From contig NIVC01003101.1 in assembly GCA_002269645.1 (NCBI GenBank), forward strand, positions 55,424 to 119,423: 64,000 nt of DNA, read 5' to 3'. This DNA comes from Macrostomum lignano (lineage: Eukaryota). This document shows positions 36,579 through 53,651 of the stretch, in pieces (within the stretch, counting starts at the first letter, position 1; each line of letters starts with the position of its first letter). Both the position numbers and the translations under genes were made by a program. The notes under the pieces were generated by a model. It did no database searches. It was not told where the DNA came from and saw only the letters and a list, made by a program, of their open reading frames with translations.

Positions 36579-38459
36579 ATGAGGTGTCTTGGTGATTCGC
36601 AGCTCGAATCGGCAGCGCAGTTAAAGTTGATTGACCGCCACGGAGCCGGCTGGGTGAGTCAAATAAGGCCATCATGTTGAAGTTTGGCCACTGTTGTGGA
36701 GCTGCTTTTACCTGCAATGGTCTTGTAAACCCGCAGACTCCATACGCAGCCACTCGATCGCTCGAGTCATTGGCTGCTCATCTCGGCTCAGTCGCCAACA
36801 GCGACCTTGAGAGAGTGCGCTCAGTGTACAGGTGGATCACTGCTCACATTGAGTAAGAGGGGTTGCTTTTTGTTAGTTTCAATCATGAGTCAAGAGTCTA
36901 CCAGAATCGACTGCCGCCTTGGCAGGTTTGACGTGGACGGCCGCTACGGACGGCGGGCCAGACTCCCCAACGATGCAGAGTCCGTGCTGAAGAACAGAGC
37001 CGGCGTCTGCGAGGGCTATGCCAACCTGATGCTTGAGCTCTGCTCGTAAGCTCATCTTGTTATTGTCTGAATTAGTAAAACCAACTTCAAAGACTCACTT
37101 TGCTGACATTTTAGAATCCTTGGAGTTACCTGCAAAGTTATTTCTGGCTACTCAAAGGAAAACGACTCAGGTGTCACCGGGGACCAGCAGGCTGCATTCG
37201 ACCCCACTGAATTTCACGCATGGAACGCAGTGCAACTCGACGGCCGGTGGAAACTCATCGATTGCACCTGGGGAGCCGGTTTTGTCAAAGACAAAAATAA
37301 TTTCGTGAGACAGGAGAACGACTTGTACTTTCTCCCGGACCCCAAGGTGTTCATCGAGGATCATTTTCCCTTCATGAACTCTGACATGGCTGGAAGCAAG
37401 AAGTGGCAGCTGCTGAAGAAGCCGATTGACCTGGCCACCTTTCACTCTCGAGTGCGCCGGCAAAAGGCCAGCATTGAGCACCAGGTGCAGCTTGTGTCCC
37501 ACAAACAGGCTCTCATTGATGTGGACAGTGAGGTGACGCTGAAGTTCAAAGGAACTGGAAGACCACTAACGGCATTCAGCGCCAAGTTCGTCAATCCAGG
37601 TACAGGTGAGAGCATCAGCAGTGGCCTGTATATTGCCACTGTGTTAAATCATCGCAAGAACGAAGCTACCGTGACCGCAAGACCGCCAACCTGTGGAGCC
37701 TACTGGGAGCTCAGAGTGCAAGGAACGACGGAGGATAACCCCACTCATCTCATTGGCTTCGTGTCCTACAAGCTGCGGTCAACACGAGCGGTAGATCTCA
37801 GACCTTTCCCGCAATGCTTTGATGGCTTTTATGGACTGCTGAGATGCCCGCAACGATGCGGCTTCTCAAGTGAGCTCAGAGGCCGGCAAGCCTTCCGTCT
37901 CAGAGCGAGTTCCGGTGAGCTGCAGCTGAAGCTGCCTGTACAGCAGCCGGTCTCCGCATCCGCGCTCCTGCACTTTGCTGAAGACAGCGAGCCTCAGAAG
38001 CAGGCGGTGCTACTCGAGATGGACAAGAAGGCTCTGAAAGTTAGCGTCAGGATGTACCGACGCGGGTTCCACAGGCTGACCTTGTTCTGTAAGGATGTCG
38101 GCTCCGACAGCGGGTCCATTCCGGAGCTCGCAAACTTCCTGATCGAGTGCGCCAGGCCGATGAAGCGGCGAAGGCCGTTCCCCGAGTTCCTTCCCCGGTC
38201 GCTGGCGGAGCGGGTGACGCTGGACGGTCCGAGAGACGGCGAGCTGCGGGCCAACAGCGACGTCCATTTTAGGCTGAGCAGCCCCAGCCTCCGAGTGGTG
38301 ATGGTGCAGGACGGAAGTCAGACTGTGCACCGCAGGACGGGCTCCGGGTTCAGCTTCGGCGTGAGGACCGGACCGCCGGGGGCCGACCTTGCACTGTACG
38401 GAGCTCACGGAGAGGAAGATAAAAAGTTCTACTGTCTGTACAAATATAAAATCTTGTAA
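36579..38459 (+). CDS. KY/hillarin-like transglutaminase-fold protein, copy 1: join(36579..36653,36737..36852,36926..37045,37115..38459); true start uncertain
   Basis: Triad motifs GVCEGYA (Cys), FHAWNAVQLDG (His) and LIDCTWG (Asp), plus YFLPDPKVFIEDHFP. Exons of 116 and 120 nt with phase-2 junctions are shared with the paralogues. Confidence 0.85.
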
Positions 38460-39333: not shown

Positions 39334-42264
39334 ATGGGTTGCTGCTGCAGCAAGTCTTCCAGCGTTGCTCCTCTGGGTCAGGCTGACCCAAGAAATGGCA
39401 AAGCGCAAGTGCAGGCGCTCCCGCAGCAGTTAGATGCAGCGCAGCTCAGGACTCAGGATAAAACAGAGCCATGGCTTTTCCAGCCTCGGAGCGTAAATGC
39501 ATCAGCGGTGCCAAAAATCCAGACTAAATGGAGCAATGATGACGTAAGCAAACGATTAAAAGGAAGATTAATCATTTCTGAGTTTAAATAAGTGTAATAA
39601 ATTAGTTTTATTGTAAGTTTCATAAAAAAAAGCATGAAAATTTTTTCACTTGCTCAAGGTCAAGCCCAAGGTCGAGCCCAAGGTCAAGCCCAAGGTCGAG
39701 CCCAAGGTCGAGCCCAAGGTCGAGCCCAAGGTCGAGCCCAAGGTCGAGCCCAAGGTCGAGCCCAAGGTCGAGCCCAAGGTCGAGCCCAAGGTCGAGCCCA
39801 AGGTCGAGCCCAAGGTCGAGCCAAAGGTCGAGCCCAAGGTCGAGCCCAAGGTCGAGCCGCAGTCCATAATTTTTAAGCCGGATATTGCAGCACTCAAGCA
39901 TATCGATGAGCATGTCAAAAGGATGCGTTGCGCTTCGATAAGGAGAGTGGAAAAGCTCGCATGAGCATTCGACTAATTTAAAATTTTCAGACTCCCCTAG
40001 CAGCAAGGAGGTCCCTGGAGTCTCTGGCTGCCAACCTGGGCTCAGCTGCCACTTCCGATCTACAAATCTACAAATGGATACAATGGGTCTACAAATGGAT
40101 CACTGGAAATATCAGGTCGGTTCTTTTACAATCTATTTCAAGATTCATAGCAGACCAAGTATTGATGTGCATGCAGTTATGGAATTTTTCGAAAGGAGGC
40201 GTGACATGCCTTGTCAATGCGCGCATGTGCAGCAAACTATAAATAATTTTGCCTGGCCCTCAACCCTTCTTAAGACTTAATAAAAGTCTAAATAAAAATT
40301 ATTATTTTTTATTTTAGCTACGATGTGGATGGCTACTTCGGAAAGAAAGATAAGTCACCGAACGACGCCGCGTCTGTTCTGCGGACGGGAAAGTCTGTGT
40401 GCGAAGGATACGCCACGATATGCCTCAGTCTGTGTCAGTAAGTTTCAGGAGTCAAGTAAAGTGCACAGCCAAATTAAAGAACTAAATATTCGTACACTGC
40501 TACCGCAGAACTTTTAATTCGCCTGTAAAATGAAGGCTTCAGTCATTGAAACCAATTGTAGACTCTTAGGCATCGAGTGCGTCAAGATCAGTGGCTACTC
40601 GAAAGGATTTAGCTATAATCCGACTAAACCGCTTACGACTGACAAGGACACCAGTCACGCATGGAACGCTGTGAAATTGAACGGCCAATGGCGACTCATT
40701 GACACCACCTGGGGCGCTGGTCCCGTCAATTCCGATCACAAGTTTGAAAGAAACGAGACTGACTTTTACTTTCTCACAGATCCCGAGGTGTTCATCGAAG
40801 CGCACTTTCCCTATATCAACTCCGACATGGCCGAGAGCAAGAAGTGGCAACTGCTGAAGAACCCGATCGATCTGAGCACTTTCAGCAGCCGAGTACGAGC
40901 TAAAGCGAGAAAAAGCTTGCATTGAGCACCAGGTCGAGCTCGTGTCTCACAAAAAAGCTCTCGTTGATGTAGACGGCGAGGTGACGCTGAAGTTCAGAGG
41001 AACCGGAAGACCACTGACGTCATTCAGTGCAAATTTCGTAAACCCGAGCACAGGCGAGAGACTGAGCAGTGACAAGTACGTTGCTACAGTGCTCGATCAC
41101 CACAAAAACGAGGTCACGGTGACTGCACGACCTCCATCGAGTGGCGTCTACTGGAAACTGGACGTGTTTGGAAAAACGAATGAAGCTGCAAAGACATCCG
41201 ACTGCATCGTGTCGTACCACCTTCAGTCCAAGTCTGACCGCCATCTACCCGAATTTCCTGACAACAGTCTGGGATACTACGGACTGCACGAGAGTCCAGA
41301 GAAGGCTGGATTCACAAAAGACTGCGTTAATTGTGGTTTTTTTATTAAAAATCAAGGTGGAGTTCATGCTTTGGAAATTCCATTTACAAAGCCGAAGCAA
41401 GCTTTGGCGAAGCTTATTTTCGCTAATGACTCAAAGCCGGATAAGCGAGCGTGTGCCGTTGAAGTGACTAACAATTGTCTGAGGATCAACCTACGAATGC
41501 GTCGGATTGGGTATTACGTGTTGCAACTGTTTTTTAAGGAATTTAACGCACAGGATAGTGCGTTTTCCTGCCTGGCTGTTTTTCTTATTGAATGTACGAC
41601 GGCGTTGAGCGCCCTAGAGATGTTTCCTGACTATAATGGCTTCTACGGGATTCAATTGAATCCGAAGGATTTCAGTTTTGCACACCAATTTGTTACCGAA
41701 ACCGAGTTCTTCATAAAAGATTCTGACGGGCAGTGCGAACTAAAATTTCCAACGACTGAGCTCGTCTACGCCGTGGTTTCGCTCTGCAGTGCCGATGATA
41801 GCGCAGACATACGAGAATTCAGCCTTGTGGAGACCAAGAAAGACTATTTGAAAGTCAACATCAGAATGAGCCGAAATTTTTTTTATAAACTTCAACTTTT
41901 TTGCAAGCCTAGTAACTCAAACAGGGAAAGCTATAAGCTACTTGCGAATTTCCTAATCGAGTGCACACGGCCACTTGATCAACCGAGGCAGTTCCCAGAG
42001 ACCTATGCAAGTTTCTCCAAAGAACAAGTGTCCTTAGAGAGTCCGCGCGATGGTGAGCTGTCAGCAAACTCTGAAGTTGTGTTCAAATTGACCTCTCCGA
42101 CGCTGAAGAAGCTGATGGTGAATAGCAGCGTTCACAGCAGGACTGAGGCAGGCTTTGAATTCGTAGTGAGAACTGGACCAGCTGGCAGCGACCTGACGGT
42201 GTACGGGTCCGCTGACAAGAGTGCCAACTCATATGTCGGACTCTGCAAATACCGTGTCGTGTGA
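39334..42264 (+). pseudogene. KY-like copy 2, probably disabled; carries an extra C-terminal repeat module
   Basis: Exons 39334-39543 (MGCCCSK), ~39863-39922, 39991-40115, 40318-40437 and 40562-42264. The expected donor at 39923 reads AT instead of GT. A 7-nt insertion (cgagcta, 40896-40902) relative to copy 4 causes a frameshift and stop at 40925. Confidence 0.75.
39655..39860. repeat. 12-bp minisatellite in KY copy 2 intron 1
   Basis: Tandem caaggtcgagcc ending just before a gcag acceptor-like site. Confidence 0.95.
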
Positions 42265-43454
42265 CGGCGTAACAAACTTACACTAAAATAATTTGCGTAT
42301 CCACTCTGTACTTTTTATGACTTCCTAAATGATAGTTGTGTCCAAGCTAAACTTTGCATTGGTGTATTGGATAAAATTCAGAGGTTGTCTAGAGTCTTTC
42401 TATGAATAGTTAATCGTCTGATCTTGTCCGCCTGATTGTCCCAGATCACAGCACCCAGGAGATCGATTTTAGGGAGAAAAAAGTACGAAACAGTTAAATT
42501 GAACTTTTCGTCTTTTTTGGACACCTCGAGATGAAAGAAATAAAAAGCTAAAAAATGGCGGTAGCTTCATGTTTCCTTGCACTTTTTGTATCTTTAGATG
42601 TACTTTTAACTGACGGAGGAGGAAGATGCTCCATTGAAATTCCCATTTCACCTTACAGGCCACCAGCTACCAAATCTTTTGTCAATTGAAATACATATAA
42701 CAATACCAAAATTGCAAGAAAACGTGATGCTATCGCCATTTATTTTGTTTTTTTTCCTTTTCCCGTTTGCGTTTTAGATAATTTCAACTTAGCAAATTTT
42801 TAATGTAATTATTTAAAACATAGTTGTCCCAGTGATATTTGAAAGTCAATTTACACATAGTTTTACTGACAAAATTTCGTAATATTTTTATCCAGGCAAG
42901 ACTTCGTGTACAAGCTCGATCGATTTCTGAAATTTGGTTTGTCATTTTGTCAGTTTTATTATTTACGTAGAGGTTTGAAACCTTCGAATAGCTATTGTTG
43001 ATTTCAAAGACCTCAGGGTAATTTTAAACAGTGGGAAATGATTATAAACCTAAATATTTTATATATTATATATTTATATTAACGTATTATTATTATTATT
43101 GATACACTTATGCAGACGGCTAGAGTTGCGACAGTGCAGCGAACACTGGGGATGTGGAAGTGACACCAAAAACCTAGATAGATTATTGGAAAAAGAACTT
43201 GGGAAAATAGTCAGATCAAAGGCCAGCGTCCTATTCACACAACACTTGATTAGCTGAATCAAAGGCCAGCGTCCTATACTTCACAACGGGCCTTAGTTTT
43301 GTGAACATCAGCAATATTATTTATGACATTATCGCAAAAAATAAAAACCTCAGTACTCGTAGATCCTATATAAAGTTACGACCTAAAAACCGGATAGCTA
43401 TTGCTTTTGAATCCGGTGAAAGATAGAAAAACATGGACAATCAGCATTGAGCAG

Positions 43455-43548
43455 AGAACTGATCTTCTTGTGCTACCAATACGAGCATGGCGCAAAGCTG
43501 AAGAATATCGACGAACACGTCAGAATAGTGAGTAAAGAGAAGAGAATC
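43455..43548 (+). pseudogene. Orphan KY-like first-exon remnant (copy 3)
   Basis: AKLKNIDEHVRI|gtgagtaaagagaagagaatc matches copy 4 exon 1 end KKIDEHVRK|gtgagtaaagagaagagaatc, including 21 intronic bases. No downstream exons of its own were found. Confidence 0.7.
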
Positions 43549-43960
43549 AGCAAAGTCAGCAAAGTCAGCAAAGTCAGCAAAGTCAGCAAAGTCAACAAAG
43601 TCAGCAAAGTCAGCAAAGTCAGCAAAGTCAGCAAAGTCAGCAAAGTCAGCAAAGTCAACAAAGTCAGCAAAGTCAGCAAAGTCAGCAAAGTCAGCAAAGT
43701 CAACAAAGTCGGCAAAGTCAGCAAAGTCAGCAAAGTCAGCAAAGTCAGCAAAGTCGGCAAAGTCAGCAAAGTCAGCAAAGTCAACAAAGTCAGCAAAGTC
43801 AGCAAAGTCAACAAAGTCAGCAAAGTCAGCAAAGTCAGCAAAGTCAGCAAAGTCAGCAAAGTCAGCAAAGTCGGCAAAGTCAGCAAAGTCAGCAAAGTCA
43901 GCAAAGTCAGCAAAGTCAGCAAAGTCAGCAAATTCGGCAATGTCAGCAAAGTCAGCACTC
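43547..43960. repeat. 9-bp minisatellite
   Basis: About 45 copies of agcaaagtc. Confidence 0.97.
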
Positions 43961-44224
43961 AGCAAATTGGGCAAAGTCTTATTCACAAAATACGAGTACT
44001 TGATTATCTGCTAAATCCTTCACAACAGACCTCAGTTTTATGAAAATCAAAGCACAGCAGCATCATTTTTTTGCTGGACACCTTGCAGAAAAACTGAAAC
44101 CTTTATATGTTATTAGAAAGTTGCGAGGCAGAAAATGATATGAAAATTAATTAGAATGATTCGCAAAATGATTTTTATTCCGAAAATTCTGCGTTTTGTA
44201 ATGAAAAATCTATGCTGTTGCTAT

Positions 44225-44925
44225 TGTTGTGTCTCGGCCTAATGGCCGCTGGACGGGTCAAGGTTCGGGCCCTCCCCGCCTGAGACACCCCTGTCCCAGC
44301 CCTCACCCCGGCTATTCCTACCCTGTCTCGCTCGGTTCGGCGAGAGTTCGCCTGACCGAACACCCTGGGATCGGCGAGAGTTCACCGTTCCCAGGTCCCT
44401 GCAGATCCCGGCCCCACGCGGCAACCCAGAAGAACGAAAGCTCGAGCTCACCTCCTCTTGATATATCGAGTTACTAACGAAGCGTTTATTGGCCCGAAGC
44501 AGTTATTGGCACGCGAAGGCAGAGGTACGCCGATGAACGCAAAAACAGTAAGAACGAAGCGGACACCAATAGAGAGCAAACGTGGAGCGCAGCCCGCTCA
44601 GGGCTAGCATTTAAATAATACACAAAAAAGGGGGAGGGGTGGGGCAGAATGGAGACGGCGAGCCAAACCCTGGGGCCCAGCCGGCTTATCAGCCAGCCAG
44701 CCAATACGAGCAGCCCCAGGGTGAGGCGGGCAACGAGGGAGGGGGGGGGCACCCAGATTGGACAGAGATTGGGCCGGGGGCTGGGTGCAAAGGGCTAGGC
44801 CAGGGTTGAGACTTACGCCTCTCACAAACCCTGGCCCGGGCGCGAGACGGGGGACGGGGCGGGGTGGCATGAAAACTGAAAACAAAAGTACGAGTACATA
44901 CACACTGGAAGGGCGCAGCCCAACA
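44225..44925 (-). repeat. 3' LTR
   Basis: Direct repeat of 52167-52868. The only difference seen is G9 vs G10 in one homopolymer. In element sense it has TATA-like tatttaaa and an aataaa signal. Confidence 0.97.
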
Positions 44926-44938
44926 TCCTCCCCCTCCA
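44926..44938 (-). other. Polypurine tract
   Basis: Element-sense ggagggggagga immediately precedes the 3' LTR TG. Confidence 0.9.
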
Positions 44939-45165
44939 AGAAAAAGAAGAGGAGAAAGGGGATGTCAAGCAAAAAGCAACGCATGAACAAGCAAGTCTGA
45001 AAAAAAGTTTATTCAAGAAACGACGGCCGAAAAATAACAGAAAAACTTTGACGCGACGCGTGGATATCGCCGGCATTACAAAAAACAAAAACGAAAAAAT
45101 GAAAACGGGACACAAACTATTGCGTACGCAAAAATTGAAAACGGGCTTAAGAACGCAATTCTACT

Positions 45166-46842
45166 CTACAATCGGCCAAAAAATCTACTACAGTTGGTCG
45201 CAAACAGTCGAGTCCAGTACCTGCGATCACATTCACTGTCCGCTAGGGCTTCCGGCACGAACTTGATGGCTGTCGGGTCCTTGGGGTCTCCACCAAACGG
45301 TGCGGCCGATGTCACTAGCAGGCGCTGCCGCGGGAGACGCTTAGCCCGTTGGACCGCTCGCGGGGATCCTCGGCACCGAGCGGACACCTCGAAGAAGACC
45401 CCGTGGCACTTGCTCACCAGCGCGGCCTCGACGGCCTCCGGCAAGTCCAGGTCCTCGGCCAGCATGACGCTCATCGCTTGAAACTCCGGCTGCCGGAGGA
45501 ATCCTAGGGCGACCGCCCAGGCAGGTTCGCCGCCTTCAACTCGGAACAAAACCGGCAGGCCGAACTCCTTGGCAAGCAAGAACTGCTCCATCGCCGCCGT
45601 TAACTGGTCCTGGCGCTGCGACCTCTCAGCGTCCCAATTGAGCTCGACTTCGCCGACCGCCACGACACGCGGCCAGCTACCCGCTAGAAATCGTCGTACA
45701 TCGTCTCGCAGCGATGGCCACCACGGTGCAGCACTGGCCTTCAGGCCCAGGGCGAACACGATCCGTCGGTCTTGCAGCAGTGGTCGGACAACGGGACATT
45801 CTAGACGCAGGCAGTACGGCGAGTTTACAGCCGCTAGACATCGACGCACGCCACGAAGGTCCTCGGGCTGAATCGACCGGCCCAGCCTCGTTAGGTATGC
45901 CTTTGCATCGACGAGACGCTTAGCCGAGCTGACCTTGCGCTGATTCGGGTCGTCACGGGGGGAGACCTCCTGGACCGTGTCGGCCGGTCGTACTTGCTCG
46001 GGGTCGACACCCGTTAACTCTTCGGTCGCCAAGTCGCGCTGGGCCGTCAGCGGAGTCTGCGAAAGGTGCGGCCCGTCACTCCCCTCCTCCGGGCGCCGCG
46101 CGAGGCCAGGATCCACTAAGAGAGACAGACCCCGGAGCCTCCCCAACAAGGGACCCCCCAACTCACACAGCTCAAAACCCCGCACAGCCAACAACACGCA
46201 CTCAAACGCCGCCTGCAGCACCGAAGGCGGGACCCTCCGACACCTCCCGGAACCACCACCAGAACCTCTCTTCCGCCCATACTGATTGCACAGAAACGAC
46301 ACAGACACTGCTAAGAATCTAGACAACTGCTCAGGCACACTCACACCAGCCCCATCAAGAAACCTCGCCACCTCCTGAACCACCAGGCAAGCTCCTTCAC
46401 TATCCCCAGCCCTCAACCGCGCCAGCAGCGCACCCCTCAGCCGCCTACACTCAGCAAGCGCAGCCGGAGCCAATAACTCGGCTGGGATCTCCGCGTGAAC
46501 TGGAGCTTCCCCTGCGGCGCTTCCCTTAAGACTAGCCAAAGCTAACCTGACCTGCTCGGGCAACTCAACGTCAGGGGGAGGATTGAAAAAGTAGGCGTAC
46601 TTTAACACCCCTTGACACGCTGCCTCCCCAACCCGATCGTATACTTCCCGAAACACTGGGTCAGATAAAACGCACATCGCCATCACGTCTCGCTGAGACT
46701 CCGGAGACTCTACCTCGGCAGGACAGACGCGGGGCCGCTTTGAGTACAGACGACTACACGCTGCCTCAATCTCCGCAGAGTTAGCAGTCCGACCCACGCC
46801 TAACACGCCATACAAATCAGTCGGTGTCGTTGGCGACGACAT
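45166..46842 (-). CDS. Retrotransposon ORF3 (558 aa from ATG 46842): J-domain-like N-terminus plus TatD-fold C-terminus
   Basis: N-terminus DLYGVLGVGRTANSAEIEAACSRL...VLSDPVFREVYDRVGE follows the DnaJ pattern. The C-terminal ~250 aa have LVDAKAYL, RVVAVGEVELNW, AKEFGLPV, LPRQRLLVTSAAPF and TNCSRFF, in the order and spacing of TatD motifs. Confidence 0.82.
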   Translation of the reverse strand: MSSPTTPTDLYGVLGVGRTANSAEIEAACSRLYSKRPRVCPAEVESPESQRDVMAMCVLSDPVFREVYDRVGEAACQGVLKYAYFFNPPPDVELPEQVRLALASLKGSAAGEAPVHAEIPAELLAPAALAECRRLRGALLARLRAGDSEGACLVVQEVARFLDGAGVSVPEQLSRFLAVSVSFLCNQYGRKRGSGGGSGRCRRVPPSVLQAAFECVLLAVRGFELCELGGPLLGRLRGLSLLVDPGLARRPEEGSDGPHLSQTPLTAQRDLATEELTGVDPEQVRPADTVQEVSPRDDPNQRKVSSAKRLVDAKAYLTRLGRSIQPEDLRGVRRCLAAVNSPYCLRLECPVVRPLLQDRRIVFALGLKASAAPWWPSLRDDVRRFLAGSWPRVVAVGEVELNWDAERSQRQDQLTAAMEQFLLAKEFGLPVLFRVEGGEPAWAVALGFLRQPEFQAMSVMLAEDLDLPEAVEAALVSKCHGVFFEVSARCRGSPRAVQRAKRLPRQRLLVTSAAPFGGDPKDPTAIKFVPEALADSECDRRYWTRLFATNCSRFFGRL

Positions 46843-47178
46843 GGTCCTCCTGCAATGATGACATTTAAACCCAATCACTACCTATGCCTTGCGGACTAGC
46901 AACTGTGACCCTGACCTGACCCATCCTATGACATGTTTATTTTACAATACGATTGAGAACGCTTCTTGCCTAGCATACTTTGTAATTTTAATACATTTAA
47001 TGTTTTTTACGTGCTTTCCATGCGTTCCATTTTATGATTTTTTTGTGCTTTGGGTTGTATCATTTTTTTCATTTTAGGTTATTTTAGGCTTTCTACCATA
47101 GACAACAGCGTGGAGGCATTAATACAAGTGCATATTAAAAATCAATTTATGACGACCGCCTTGTGAGCCCACTGCGAA

Positions 47179-50100
47179 TTAACGATACAATACCGGATTC
47201 CCGTAATACGCTGGGGGCACACCCCGACGCTCGCGCAGTCTGCGCGGAGACACGGCTGGCGCCGCTGGAGCCACCGGTGCGCATGGCGCAACTGGCGTTC
47301 CCGGCCCTACTATCCCATGCCGAGGCCCAACGGCAACTGGTGGCACCACATACGAGTAAAACTCCTCCTCCTCCTCAAGTTCCGGCTCTTTAGTCGCCGG
47401 CCCCGCGGGCTCCTGTCTGCACCCTGCCGGCTCAGGCGGATGCGCCGACCGGCGCTGCACTGCCGTATGCCTATTCATCAACCTGAACTGCTCAGGCCGC
47501 TCGGGTACTTTTCGCAAATTATTATAATGCACTATTTTGCTCTTTCCCCTATTGGCGTGCTTTACCCGGTAATTCAAATCGGATATCTTCTCTAACACCT
47601 TCGCCGGCCCCTTCCAATTGCAATGGAACTTGGCTGCCTCCCCTGCCTGCAGCGCAGGCGAGTATTCTAGGACGGCATCCCCACTTCTATGGCCGGGCCT
47701 CGCACCCTTGAGTCGTACAGCACTTTCTGTTTCCTCTGGTACTGCTGCAGGTTGGTCCGCACCTGCGAATGAGCCTCAGCCAGACTATTACCTAATGACT
47801 GAACATACGCCGGAGCACTGGCAGGAATGGACTCAGGCAAGGTTCCGATGTCCACTGGAAGCCGCATCTCCCTGGCGTACAGCATGTAGTACGGGGTGTA
47901 CCCCGTGCCTCTGTGAACGCTGCTACGGTACGCCATGAGAGACGGGTGGATCAGATCCTCCCAGTCTCCTTCGCCCACCGACTCACTCATCCTGCACTTG
48001 ATCATTGACTTCAACGTCTTATTGAAACTCTCAGCCTGACCATCAGCCATCGGGTGATAGGAGGACGTTCTGCATTTCTTAACGGCAAGCAACCGACACA
48101 ACTGCTTCATCAAAGCCGACTCAAAATTGGTGCCCTTATCGGTGACTAGAAATTCAGGACAACCAAAGTGCGCAATCCAGTGATCAAAAATCGCTCGCGC
48201 CACCGTCGGGGCTCGCTGATTCGACAAGGGCACCGCCACCGGCCACTTAGTAAAAGAATCCTGGATTGTCAGCACGAATCGATTGCCACCTCTGGACTTG
48301 GGCAACGGCCCGACAATGTCACTCATGATCCTCTGGAAAGCTCCTTCCGAGCAGATTGGCTGCAAAGGCGCCCGGTTGCTGCGCCCAGGCTTCGCCTTCG
48401 CACAGTGGACACAGCTCCGGCAATACTCTTCCACGGAACGACTCAGCCCCGGCCACCAGTATCTCGCCTTCACTTTCTCTTGTGTCTTCCTAACCCCAAG
48501 GTGCCCTCCTGCAACCCCATCATGAAGCTCACTGAGCACTTTCGGCAGCAAAGCCGGCGGCAGCAAGATCTTTTTCTGGCACCCACTCCCGGGACTCTGA
48601 AAATACAACAGATCAGACTCTACTCTTATCAGCTGCCGTTGTGCCCACAGCACACGCTCCTCCCACGACATCACTCTAGGCGCACTGGGGTTCGAACCCG
48701 GGTCCAGGGCATAGGAGCGGACAGCTGCAAGCTTCTTCTCGGCCACTTGCGCCTGCTGGACTTCCTTCGAAGACAGCCCACTGCCAAACACCGCGTTCAC
48801 TACTGGCACATTCTCGCTAAACTGGCAGCTAGGGCAGCTCTCATGGCCAGCGTGTTTTCGGTACTTGCGAGACAGCGAATCAGCGTTGCCGTGCTCCTTG
48901 CCTGGCCTGTGAATGATCTCAAAGTCGAAGTTCTGGAGCGACTCAAGCCACCTTGCGCACTGACCCTCTACGTCCTTCAGACTGGCTAGCCACTGCAAAG
49001 CTTTGTGGTCTGAACGAACAGTGAACTTTCTACCTAACAAATAGTACCTATACTTTTTGACGAAGTGCACGACGGCAAGCAACTCTAACCTGGTGGTGCA
49101 ATAATTTTTCTCCGCCGCATGAATCATCCTAGACCCGTAAGCGATCACCTTCTCACGGCCATCTGCTTGACGCTGTGACAGGACGGCTCCCAGCCCGACG
49201 CGCGAACTGGCGTCCGTGTCGAGGATGAACTCCCCGGCACCAGGCGAAAAATCCGGGAATGCCATCACATTCGGTGAACACAAAGCGTCTTTCAGCCTGC
49301 AAAACGAGCTCTCCTCTTCACTACCCCACTCAAACTTCACTCCGTCTGCGGTTAACCTATACAGCGGCGCTGCAATCTCTGAAAACTGCGGGATAAATGA
49401 CTGATAGTAGGCGCACGTACCCAGGAATGCCTGCACCTTCTTGGCGCTACATGGCCTCGGCCAATTCTGGATCTCCTCGCACTTGCTCGGATCCGTTGCG
49501 ATCCCCTCCTGAGAGACGATGTGGCCCAGAAACTTCACCCGCTCTGCGAGGAACACACACTTGGCGGGCTTCAGCTTGACATTGGCATCCCTCAGGCACT
49601 GGAAAACATGCTTCAATCGCTCGAGATGCTGACCCACCGACTTGGCGAACACGACTATATCGTCAAAGTACACCAGGCACTCCTTCCAGTTAACCTCAGA
49701 CAGGGCCATAGACATTAGCCTGGCGAACGTAGCGGGAGCATTGCGCAAGCCAAAACTCATGCACTTCCAGGCGAACTGACCCCTGTTGGGTACCACGAAC
49801 GCCGTTTTCAACTGGTCCTTCGGCTCAATCGGGCACTGATGATAGCCGGAGGCCAGATCCATCGTCGAGAAAACACAGTTCCCTCCTAGCGCATCAAGCG
49901 TCTCGTCCATCCGCGGCGGTGGGTAAGGATCTGGCACTGTGACCTCGTTAAGGCGCCGATAGTCTAGACACAACCTCAAGCTACCGTCGGCCTTTTTAAC
50001 CGGCACGATCGGGCTCGCCCACGGAGAGTAGCAGGGATAGATGCGATCCTGCTGCAACAACTCATCAACCTGCTTATCAATTTCCTCCTTCCAGCGCGGT

Positions 50101-51116
50101 GGAATCCTACGCGCGGGCTGACTTACTGGCTTGGCGTTGCCGGTGTCAATCTCATGCGCCATCAAGTGTGACTGTCCCAACTCCGAGCTATCCCTGGCAA
50201 AGACATCACGATTCCGAGCCATCAGGCGCTCAAACTCGTGCTTCTCATCGCCCGTCAGGCCACATCCTCCCCACTCCTTGACATCGCTGAGGGGGTTCCA
50301 GTCGTCTCGGACACTCTCCACCGAGTTCACCTGCCACCCAGCTGGCTGCTGGGCCGCCACTGGGGAGAACCAACCAATTCGGCTTCCCTTCCTTAATGAC
50401 AGACTGCATCCTGACGTGTTCAACACCCTGACAGCCAAGCGACCGTCCCCGTCAGGCATCTGTACCGATCTGGCCACCATCTGCTCGTTACTCACTCTCC
50501 TCTCAGACTCCACAATGCCTAGGAACTGAACCCCAGAGGGAACCCTTCTCTGCAACCTGACGTGCACCACCTTCTCTTGACCTGCATTGAACTGCTCAGG
50601 CTGACTCAGCACCAGACGGCAAAGACGCGGCTTATCTGCTGATAAGCGAAACGGATACACACAGGATGCAGTCTGCAAGCAATTCCTAGCAAAGTCAATC
50701 GCCATCCCGTGTCTCACGAAAAAGTCAGTGCCCAGAATACATGCCACAGCCAGTTCCTCGACCACAGCGAACTCGTGCAAAAACTCGGTGTCCCCAACAG
50801 AAAACTTCATCGTCACCATTCCATGTACAGCAATCGGTTCCCCATTGGCAGCGAAAACGGAAAAATTCGGCAAATTCGGCAATAAGTCAATGTCGGCTTT
50901 TTTAGACTTCAGGAAACGGTTGCTTAACAACGACACGGTGGCCCCGCTGTCAAGCAGACATGCAATCGGGGGCCCAAACCTAAACTGTGCATCCACATAG
51001 CCCAGTCCCTGCCGACTCAGCACACTCTGGGACAAGGCCGCGGCCCCCGATGCACCCGGATTCACTGACGCTGGGGCCCGGACGGGTGCCCCGGCCGAGC
51101 CCCCAATCCGTTTCCC
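47179..51116 (-). CDS. pol: Pol polyprotein (protease, RT, RNase H, integrase with GPY/F tail); one frameshift near 47680
   Basis: LLDSGAT protease, SPWASPIVPVKKADGSLRLCLDYRRLN and YFDD RT, FILDTDAS RNase H, HHCC plus IMSDIVGPLP / VTDKGTNF / GQAESFNKTL integrase. The tail WKGPAKVLEKISDLNYRV continues in ORF 47179-47598 after a 1-nt loss in a G run. Confidence 0.95.
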
Positions 51117-52042
51117 GAACCCGACTGGTCCCACCGACGATAGCAGCGGTTGCGCATGTGCCCTGACTGGCCACACTCCCGGCAGACCACTGCATTACGG
51201 CACCGAGCCGTAGTATGCCCTGTCTGCAGGCACCGACCACACTGCCTCTGCTGCTGACTCTGCTCAGGGGCTCGATGCTGCAAGCTCACTTTTGGCTGCT
51301 CAGACCTTGCTGTCGCCATCGGCGCAGTGGGCGCTGCAGCACTTGCTTTTAGCTGAGCCACTTCCGCTTTCAGAGCTGCTATCTCGGCGGCTGCCCTGGA
51401 CTCCTGGCTGTTGCCAGCCGCTGCGGCCTGACCCCCCACCATGTGCACAGCTCGCTTGCCCTCGGGCTCCATCAGAGCCAACGATGCCCTCACTTGACGC
51501 ACCCGCCTAATAGCGTCCTGGAGCGTCTCTGGCGCTTGCAGCAGCACGCTCTCCAGCACCCGGGCTGGCACCCGAATCCCCTTCAAAAACCTGTCTTTCA
51601 CCAACTCTTCTCGCTGGGCCGCTGGCAGCATTGGGTACGATTTTCTCATAAGCTCCTTGAGCACGTCTGCATATTCTTCAATGGGCTCGCCATCTTTCTG
51701 ATTCCTACTCTGGAACTCGGTCTTGTAATCTTGAGCAGTCCTATTCTCATCAAACCTAGCCTCTAGCTGCTCAACAAACTCATCATACGGCAAATCATCG
51801 GCCAACTCAAGATTCGCAACAGCCTTAAAAGCAGTATTAAAGTCAAGCAGACTGAGCAGCGCCTGCTTGCGCTGATCCCCTAGAATATGAGCCGCCTCAC
51901 AATACCCTGTGAATTGTTGCATCCAAAGGGCAAAGTCCTGTGTGGGCACGTACTTATTTGGCCTCGGCACCCGCTGTGCCACATTAAGTTCGTTTTGCAG
52001 ACGCGCCGTCAGGGCGTCAATCAGATCGTCTAAATTGGCCAT
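51062..52042 (-). CDS. gag: Gag with two CCHC zinc knuckles
   Basis: ATG at 52042 (MANLDDLIDAL). Retrotransposon gag core RNQKDGEPIEEYADVLKEL. Knuckles CGRCLQTGHTTARC and CRECGQSGHMRNRC. Confidence 0.95.
   Translation of the reverse strand: MANLDDLIDALTARLQNELNVAQRVPRPNKYVPTQDFALWMQQFTGYCEAAHILGDQRKQALLSLLDFNTAFKAVANLELADDLPYDEFVEQLEARFDENRTAQDYKTEFQSRNQKDGEPIEEYADVLKELMRKSYPMLPAAQREELVKDRFLKGIRVPARVLESVLLQAPETLQDAIRRVRQVRASLALMEPEGKRAVHMVGGQAAAAGNSQESRAAAEIAALKAEVAQLKASAAAPTAPMATARSEQPKVSLQHRAPEQSQQQRQCGRCLQTGHTTARCRNAVVCRECGQSGHMRNRCYRRWDQSGSGNGLGARPGHPSGPQRQ
51073..51116 (-). promoter_or_regulatory. -1 programmed ribosomal frameshift signal between gag and pol
   Basis: Slippery heptamer G_GGA_AAC (51116-51110) in gag phase, 6-nt spacer, then stem GGGGCUCGG/CCGGGCCCC (51103-51095 with 51081-51073). 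pol is in the -1 frame. Confidence 0.85.
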
Positions 52043-52146
52043 GGCTACAAAAACACAGAGACAACCGAAGCAAACAACACACAAATAAACTAGGCAACAC
52101 ACACAACCCTAAACACACGGCAGGACAGCAGGGGAGAGGACCGCTG

Positions 52147-52164
52147 ATCCTGGTCACGGCACCA
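52147..52164 (-). other. Primer binding site complementary to the tRNA-His 3' end
   Basis: tggtgccgtgaccaggat lies 2 nt inside the 5' LTR and closely matches the known His PBS TGGTGCCGTGACTCGGAT. Confidence 0.88.
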
Positions 52165-52166
52165 CT

Positions 52167-52868
52167 TGTTGTGTCTCGGCCTAATGGCCGCTGGACGGGT
52201 CAAGGTTCGGGCCCTCCCCGCCTGAGACACCCCTGTCCCAGCCCTCACCCCGGCTATTCCTACCCTGTCTCGCTCGGTTCGGCGAGAGTTCGCCTGACCG
52301 AACACCCTGGGATCGGCGAGAGTTCACCGTTCCCAGGTCCCTGCAGATCCCGGCCCCACGCGGCAACCCAGAAGAACGAAAGCTCGAGCTCACCTCCTCT
52401 TGATATATCGAGTTACTAACGAAGCGTTTATTGGCCCGAAGCAGTTATTGGCACGCGAAGGCAGAGGTACGCCGATGAACGCAAAAACAGTAAGAACGAA
52501 GCGGACACCAATAGAGAGCAAACGTGGAGCGCAGCCCGCTCAGGGCTAGCATTTAAATAATACACAAAAAAGGGGGAGGGGTGGGGCAGAATGGAGACGG
52601 CGAGCCAAACCCTGGGGCCCAGCCGGCTTATCAGCCAGCCAGCCAATACGAGCAGCCCCAGGGTGAGGCGGGCAACGAGGGAGGGGGGGGGGCACCCAGA
52701 TTGGACAGAGATTGGGCCGGGGGCTGGGTGCAAAGGGCTAGGCCAGGGTTGAGACTTACGCCTCTCACAAACCCTGGCCCGGGCGCGAGACGGGGGACGG
52801 GGCGGGGTGGCATGAAAACTGAAAACAAAAGTACGAGTACATACACACTGGAAGGGCGCAGCCCAACA
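52167..52868 (-). repeat. 5' LTR
   Basis: 702 bp, TG...CA, near-identical to 44225-44925. Confidence 0.97.
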
Positions 52869-53651
52869 CTATAAAATCCATTGAGAGCTAAAACAAGCCA
52901 TGAGCAGAGAGACCATCTACTTGCGCTAATTTTGCATCTCTAGCAACAATTAGAGACCTGAATTGAAAGAAAATGAAGAATGAAACCCGATGCAACACTG
53001 AAAGGCACAGAAGAATCGTACAGAATTAAGAAAGAGAACAGAGGAGATACAGTGAGCCGCGCTCATAAATTTATGGCTTGTAATTAATTTTAGAATGATG
53101 AATACACAAATAGAGCTGCTTCGCTTCTCACGACGATATAATCTATTTCTGTAGCACTCAGTGGCAGAGAAACTCTTCAAAATGATCATTGAAATGAGAG
53201 CTGCTCCAGTTTCTTTTAACAGCCACTTCTGCTTAGGTTTAACAAGAGACGAGTAACCGGCGAGAATAGTTTACTGAGTACGGGGGGCGGGTAGCTGAGA
53301 CCCATTGCAGCATATCCTGAAGTGGCGTGGGTGGCGCCATTCAAACAAGTGCATTGTCCATTGCGCACTGCAGGAAGACTTGAATATGGGATAGAGATTC
53401 TGGCCCCATACTCAGTACAAACTAAAGCTTTTTTTCACTTTGTGTTGCTAGGCAGCTGGGCATCTGAGTACGCATGCAACTGCCGATGCGGATGGTTTTA
53501 TAAAACTGTCCAATGAGATGAGCTCTCTAAGTACTAATAGTTGTTTTTATTAAAGCTGTTCGCGCGAACTTGAGAACCGAAATAATTTCGGATTTCATTT
53601 TCAAGCCAAAAGCAACTTAATTATCAATACTCAACTGCAGAGCACTGAGCA

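Follow-up and report, generated by a model that had tools for sequence, protein, structure and literature searches.

Accessory genes other than env are rare in LTR retrotransposons of animals. The nearest described counterparts of the element reported here are the LTR elements of bdelloid rotifers, whose ORF3s encode a DEDDy exonuclease or a GDSL esterase: like ours, these are Ty3/gypsy elements with a host-derived enzyme fold in env position, and in both cases the ORF3 is a lineage-specific gain (PMC5408684, available in part). According to the accessible text of the same paper, spliced expression is typical of the bdelloid ORF3s, whose catalytic residues are intact and which do not deviate clearly from neutral evolution within the genome. 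The cargo of our ORF3, in contrast, is a J-like domain, a helical domain and a disarmed TatD fold, and it is under purifying selection. With the TatD nucleases (E. coli TatD, YcfH and YjjV; TATDN1-3; PF01026) ORF3 shares motifs along the whole barrel and the glutamate of the GE motif. It differs from them in that seven of the eight active-site residues are replaced, and the barrel is net basic and fused behind the J and helical domains. There may be a likeness to TATDN2 in particular.

The polyomavirus large T antigen is another case of a mobile element with its own J domain beside a targeting module; its modules are different, HPD is lost in our ORF3, and the likeness is one without demonstrated common origin. 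Pam16/Tim16 and DNAJB13 use a J fold without HPD for protein contact, as ORF3 may do, and Pam16's J-like domain acts without stimulation as a protein tether (PMC3237618, in the part available); these are host proteins, however, whereas the J-like domain of ORF3 is element-encoded and derived from HPD-bearing ORF3s of the same clade. Maelstrom and EXD1 of the piRNA pathway keep inactive DEDD nuclease folds for RNA binding (PMC5408684, accessible text), although these are host genes with another fold and the comparison is an analogy only. Our literature searches turned up no description of an ORF3 with a J domain or a TatD fold: the main text of a 2025 paper on Macrostomum LTR elements (PMC12801592, available in part) does not mention DnaJ, TatD or ORF, while its further supplements and an earlier classification paper may bear on the matter, and the accessible portions of PMC8775202 and PMC12709183 contain nothing on such ORF3s.

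The window analysed here is a stretch of 64,000 nucleotides from a Macrostomum lignano contig (NIVC01003101.1). The ORF3 that it contains belongs to a young Ty3/gypsy LTR retrotransposon of Macrostomum, in which it occupies the env position. The features of the element are as follows:

44225-52868, minus strand: Ty3/gypsy element, LTR to LTR
44221-44224 and 52869-52872: target-site duplication CTAT, 4 bases
52167..52868, minus strand: 5' LTR, zero substitutions relative to the 3' LTR
52392..52393, minus strand: GTRAG site (one of four) within the 5' LTR, candidate splice donor
52147..52164, minus strand: primer-binding site, from sequence
51062..52042, minus strand: gag, 326 aa, with Retrotrans_gag and zinc knuckle, each weak (Pfam)
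47667..51194, minus strand: pol frame, with protease, RT, RNase H and integrase in order (Pfam)
46850..46851, minus strand: predicted splice acceptor directly 5' of the ORF3 start
45166..46842, minus strand: ORF3, 558 aa, third gene, env position, no transmembrane segment
44926..44938, minus strand: polypurine tract, from sequence
44225..44925, minus strand: 3' LTR, pairing with the 5' LTR

The element is assigned to Ty3/gypsy on its paired LTRs, target duplication, primer site, polypurine tract, gag and the pol order protease-RT-RNase H-integrase. The primer-binding site is presumably of the tRNA-His type. Database proteins that are 98-100% identical bear the name Macrostomum lignano. A search of the genome returned 60 matches from 78 scored candidates, ten of them full-length and stop-free, and seven more near-identical copies of the element each have their own target duplication, from which we conclude that the family is young. 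Heat-induced LTR families of Macrostomum are recognised by a heat-shock element in the LTR (PMC12801592, available portion); the 5' LTR studied here lacks a canonical heat-shock element (three-unit site, at most one mismatch). The pol frame ends at 47667, and an integrase C-terminal-like segment runs on in a different frame (47179-47775 of the window). Since the length of this segment differs from the assembly in seven of the eight sequencing runs compared, the frame break may be an assembly error. The surroundings of the element contain KY/transglutaminase-like host genes in tandem, with Ig-like_KY domains (37107-38459 and 40518-42264), and long short-unit tandem repeats lie in or near this array (43411-44000 and 39620-39870, with a 9-base unit at 43.5-44.0 kb). 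A 48-base repeat found at both 43501 and 53739 suggests that the element sits inside the KY-like array.

Like env, ORF3 is probably expressed from a spliced message. In 14 of 14 copies an AG stands immediately or at most 20 bases upstream of the ORF3 start: it abuts the ATG in five, is one base off in one, abuts a TG that would need an upstream A in four, reads AAG-ATG in one and lies within 20 bases in three. The sister LTRs carry candidate donors ending in A, and together with the acceptor AGs these suggest a spliced message. Joining the candidate LTR donor to the acceptor gives the reading of the database gene model P0005. The predicted joint was not seen in eight contig-type sequencing runs (24 listed), none of which is on record as RNA.

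Despite its position, ORF3 is not env: neither a transmembrane anchor (highest 19-residue hydropathy 1.49) nor an env family (Pfam) was found in it. The protein is laid out as follows:

46627..46821, minus strand: J-like domain, residues 8-72, lacking HPD and some of the basic residues of helix II
46729..46737, minus strand: R-P-R at the HPD position, residues 36-38, by alignment
46528..46626, minus strand: post-J extension, residues 73-105, conserved in the element ORF3s and not in four aligned host J proteins
46105..46458, minus strand: five-helix domain, residues 129-246, common to all ORF3 lineages, with a Lys/Arg-rich loop at 190-203
45169..45927, minus strand: pseudo-TatD barrel, residues 306-558, one of eight active-site residues kept, net charge +9

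Taken alone, ORF3 matches the Pfam families DnaJ (E 0.0025) and TatD (E 5.5e-5) below their curated cut-offs. Pieces of sister ORF3s pass these cut-offs (DnaJ, E 8e-17 and 7e-13; TatD, E 1e-8 and 1e-7), which establishes that the homology of ORF3 to DnaJ and TatD is real. An earlier note on this DNA had described the J and TatD-like domains of ORF3 as apparently dead, and all the motifs that it quoted were located in the 558-aa frame: the YSKRPRV region (SKRPRV, 34-39), DAKAY (312-316), the GE glutamate (GEVEL, 397-401), LPVLFR (429-434), VMLAED (459-464) and TSAAP (511-515). The five-helix domain common to all ORF3s did not figure in that account. ORF3 contains no His N-terminal to residue 116.

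TatD ligands were mapped by sequence alignment of ORF3 to 112 TatD homologues in two MAFFT modes. The eight active-site positions are invariant in 111-112 of the 112 homologues, and ORF3 keeps a single one of them, E398, which corresponds to the bridging glutamate (E. coli E91) and is retained in 19 of 19 family loci covering the position. The N-terminal HxH or (G/A)xN motif has become K314/Y316 (H to K and H to Y), the equivalents of H62, H127 and H152 are K368, R434 and L461, and the ETD acids E201 and D203 are replaced by T511 and A513, positions that hold Ala/Thr and Ser/Ala/Val/Gly in 9 of 9 ORF3 rows. The claim that the TatD ligands are lost and the GE glutamate kept was thus borne out; K368 is a further position missing from the original list, and intact ligands under a proper alignment, named at the time as the finding that would count against the claim, appeared in neither mode beyond E398. 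The register of the sixth strand is the least sure part of the alignment, with E463 two places past the aligned His column. A single-sequence structure model of the barrel reached a pLDDT of 39.8, and full-length alignments for folding were set aside because they misplaced the first TatD strands.

What these losses mean for catalysis can be judged from mutants of active enzymes. Among mutants of E. coli TatD, E91A, E201A and D203A have no activity and H62A has much less, whereas H127A and H152A remain active (PMC4176340, available in part). In TATDN1, E112A, which alters the equivalent of E398, alone among single changes lowered both activities; single His losses are tolerated in both enzymes, and class I TatDs naturally lack the HxH (PMC10085689, accessible portion). 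The equivalent of E201 is also essential in human TATDN2 (PMC10711561, likewise available in part). A canonical TatD nuclease activity of ORF3 is very unlikely on account of seven joint losses that include both ETD acids; the His losses alone would be insufficient. The original argument for a dead nuclease had been built on the His ligands, and it is the conclusion rather than this basis that holds, given that single His losses are tolerated and the key Glu is kept. Its wording 'rather than an enzyme' is well supported, as the equivalents of E201, D203 and H62 are all absent (mutants in the accessible part of PMC4176340).

The barrel has also acquired conserved residues of its own, K/R368, E/Q400, R/Q434, E463 and E485, among which E463 and E485 are, like E398, invariant in 9 of 9 ORF3 rows. 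The ORF3-specific invariant charged residues map to the active-site end of the barrel strands, and Lys or Arg occupies two of the former His positions. The barrel carries a net charge of +9 (+6 in two sisters), whereas 111 TatD homologues have a median of -8 and range from -18 to +4; in this comparison the reference TatDs are bacterial-type, and it is confounded by GC content. Judging from charge, nucleic-acid binding by the barrel is plausible, and a basic barrel with Lys/Arg at His positions would fit either phosphate binding or internal salt bridges. A catalytically dead TATDN2 mutant binds R-loops weakly and the isolated TATDN2 barrel does not bind them (PMC10711561, available portion), so that a barrel that is catalytically dead does not necessarily bind nucleic acid.

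The homology of the J-like domain is supported by PDB matches down to E 6e-5, with DNAJB13 as the top sequence match, and by 25-39% identity to HPD-bearing relatives. In one alignment the HPD column falls on R36-P37-R38, in agreement with the reading proposed from the letters, and a second alignment splits it into R36 plus P41-A42; neither is HPD. At this position 21 of the 22 family loci have RPR, and the remaining one has RPC. Together with E398 in all the covering loci, this indicates that the changes are fixed and are not single-copy errors. The erosion extends beyond HPD: helix II reads EAACSR instead of the basic KxAF/YRx of the relatives, and helix III has lost its conserved Phe, residues that we take to be Hsp70 contacts. 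HPD itself is critical for Hsp70 stimulation (PMC3237618, in the part available). Stimulation of Hsp70 by this domain has likely been lost, and here the domain is likely Hsp70-independent. A predicted complex of the J-like domain with a host Hsp70 scored 0.01, a value that carries no weight either way. In a tree with nine host J proteins the element J domains group together (70/88, weak) without affinity to any particular host protein; an origin from DNAJC9, suggested by a likeness, is unsupported.

The middle domain (residues 129-246) aligns across all the ORF3 lineages. An AlphaFold2 model from an 18-row alignment (pLDDT 86.4) consists of five helices with a flexible Lys/Arg-rich loop. Foldseek matched the model to nothing at E<=0.001 in the PDB and viral libraries, its best VIA Z of 8.7 is within the noise for helical bundles and gives no functional clue, ESM Atlas returned no usable match, and the PDB sequence matches are designed helical proteins. 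Neither a family nor a fold stands out as a match for the domain, which shows neither a new fold nor a function.

Searching with a sister J domain gave a list of 150 matches; 20 loci were fetched from it, nine of which are host J genes. Fetched loci with adjoining gag-pol or pol encode ORFs of 292-333 aa made up of an HPD J domain, an acidic linker and the shared C-terminal domain. In the RT tree the ORF3-bearing elements form seven lineages, with HPD intact in six. The family plan is a J domain, a linker and the five-helix domain, to which some lineages add a module: a chromodomain in the linker of one lineage (E 1.5e-12; for example a family of about 25 near-identical copies with HPD J domain, chromodomain and five-helix domain, L093:999-1997), or the TatD fold. 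The two TatD-bearing lineages form one clade (RT 98/100, integrase 98/99), and the other five lack this fold. Across ORF3-bearing lineages whose RTs are at 52-68% identity, the ORF3 frames are open and the acceptor-like site is kept; a whole retrotransposon clade keeps a J-domain gene under selection.

The active site of TatD is lost in every TatD-bearing row, although two sisters (34-38% identity) retain the first His of HxH, suggesting descent from a class II TatD. Eight TatD-bearing sister loci were checked at the HPD position; four read HPD and four RPD, the latter all with in-frame stops. Since the TatD site is lost in all the TatD-bearing relatives and HPD in one lineage, we conclude that the barrel was disarmed early, before the split from the sister families, and that HPD was lost later, on the lineage of the family studied here. 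With HPD intact in six of seven lineages, the ancestral ORF3 was likely an Hsp70 activator or recruiter. That both domains are dead holds for this ORF3 by its motifs and does not hold as a trait of the gene family, where HPD is mostly intact. Single decayed copies show HLD, HTD or a deletion at the HPD position. Two HPD-bearing J-helical-TatD ORF3s (L031:4118-5746 and L033:7370-8872) have one in-frame stop each, with gag/pol unmatched within 10 kb, and a further J-bearing family has a tandem repeat of about 1 kb between gag and pol (L092:6450-7490).

Among the 7,997 candidates of a word-index search for homologues, ORF3 had no match. A profile search with the helical domain found two proteins, each a Macrostomum gene model. 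The TatD profile search gave ordinary TatDs among the best 120 of 6,546, with the proviso that relatives from other species could rank lower. A HMMER scan gave 12 matches: three Macrostomum models, a fragment at 51%, six TatD-like and two DnaJ-like proteins. The fragment, an assembled piece of 166 aa (P0004), is 51% identical to the barrel, has the same lost ligands and groups with the family studied here (99/96); it may represent a related element in another strain or species. The sister barrel found no host TatD gene at E<=1 (57 candidates); host TATDN1-like and TATDN3-like exons have intact motifs. Viral contigs contained five weak TatD-like loci. One host row of the TatD tree was out of frame and was disregarded.

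Purifying selection acts on ORF3 (dN/dS about 0.3, p<1e-4). Compared with two family variants at 97% DNA identity, its dN/dS is 0.32 and 0.27 (p 5e-5 and 5e-6; 28 synonymous changes against 26 and 22 non-synonymous), a weaker constraint than that on pol (0.07-0.14). Within the family, dN/dS is 0.15 and 0.20 for the helical part (p 0.005 and 0.003), 0.46 and 0.14 for the J part, significant in one of the two comparisons (p 7e-4 and 0.27), and 0.40 and 0.35 for the TatD part, neither being significant (p 0.21 and 0.06). Between sister families it is 0.07-0.14 for the J, helical and TatD parts, at a saturating dS; the value for the TatD barrel is 0.14 at dS 1.8. From the common ancestor, the J branch measures 1.59 here against about 0.3 in the sister (about fivefold), compared with 1.6 against about 0.6 for the helical part, 1.08 against 0.97 for TatD and 0.27 against about 0.2 for RT. 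Site-count relative-rate tests on J point in the same direction with 6 of 6 outgroups and reach p<0.05 with one of six.

The reading that we prefer, and in which we place about half of our confidence, is that ORF3 is a conserved accessory protein lacking the TatD and Hsp70-stimulating residues, which likely works as a binding adaptor and not as an enzyme. In this reading, HPD-bearing ORF3s would recruit Hsp70 of the host, probably within the nucleus, to whatever target the added module selects. The family studied here would have given up Hsp70 activation and retained the J-like fold for structure or for contact with proteins. Its basic barrel and basic loop would bind nucleic acid or an acidic partner, in the simplest case RNA, cDNA or chromatin of the element itself. 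A somewhat unlikely alternative places the function in the five-helix domain alone, with the J-like domain a relaxed remnant that aids folding and the barrel a protein-binding unit or spacer. The helical domain does show the clearest constraint in the family and is present in all seven lineages, five of them without the TatD fold, but the barrel is whole, is constrained between sister families and has invariant charged residues of its own at the active-site ends of its strands. Rather less likely still, and offered tentatively, is a bolder reading in which a flatworm retrotransposon clade evolved a modular Hsp70-targeting system (J domain, five-helix core and an exchangeable reader, either chromodomain or disarmed TatD) that strips silencing or uncoating complexes from element chromatin or RNA, and that here has turned into an Hsp70-independent or inhibitory nucleic-acid clamp.

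That the J-like domain might serve as a decoy or dominant negative that binds and blocks Hsp70, a J protein of the host or an ORF3 with HPD, for instance to hinder silencing, is distinctly unlikely in our estimate. Every locus of this young family of many copies keeps the J fold in frame, the fold is constrained in one of two comparisons, and by analogy the J-like domain of Pam16 binds a true J protein (PMC3237618, accessible part); against it stand the altered helix II and the missing helix III Phe, the long J branch fits lost constraint, and with the J surface eroded beyond HPD and its branch fast, the Hsp70 decoy proposed in the earlier note is not favoured. No observation points to Hsp90 or piRNA-pathway factors, which the note had also named. 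A rebuilt enzyme, in which E398 and the new acids E400, E463 and E485 bind metal and cut or modify nucleic acid, appears highly improbable: three of these acids are invariant, the sixth-strand register being uncertain, and the counterpart of E398 is the sole residue singly needed in TATDN1 (PMC10085689, available portion), but none of the five His and neither ETD acid is present, E. coli TatD and TATDN2 cannot work without their equivalent of E201 (in the accessible parts of the papers cited above), and Arg/Lys at His positions more simply pair with acids. Least credible is a captured passenger without function. Copies without most of ORF3 have inserted at several sites: three sister elements (L042, L043 and L048), each at a different site, have gag-pol and LTRs that are nearly identical but miss a stretch of about 1.1 kb in ORF3 that includes the J and helical domains, which indicates that copying does not require ORF3 in cis. 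The selection tests, with dN/dS well below 1 within and between families, nonetheless largely refute this explanation, and the frames and acceptor-like site kept across lineages of such divergent RT speak against it as well.

Nature supplies ORF3 versions that have HPD or lack it, that add a chromodomain or a disarmed nuclease, or from which most of the gene is deleted, and in a genetically tractable flatworm whether transposons steer Hsp70 becomes directly testable. ORF3 is also of interest as a naturally occurring TatD pseudoenzyme and as the source of a small new helical domain. On the host side, the genome contains at least 17 near-identical intronless Hsp70 genes, several of them as inverted pairs (G000 C8, C9, C94, C337, C1066 and others).
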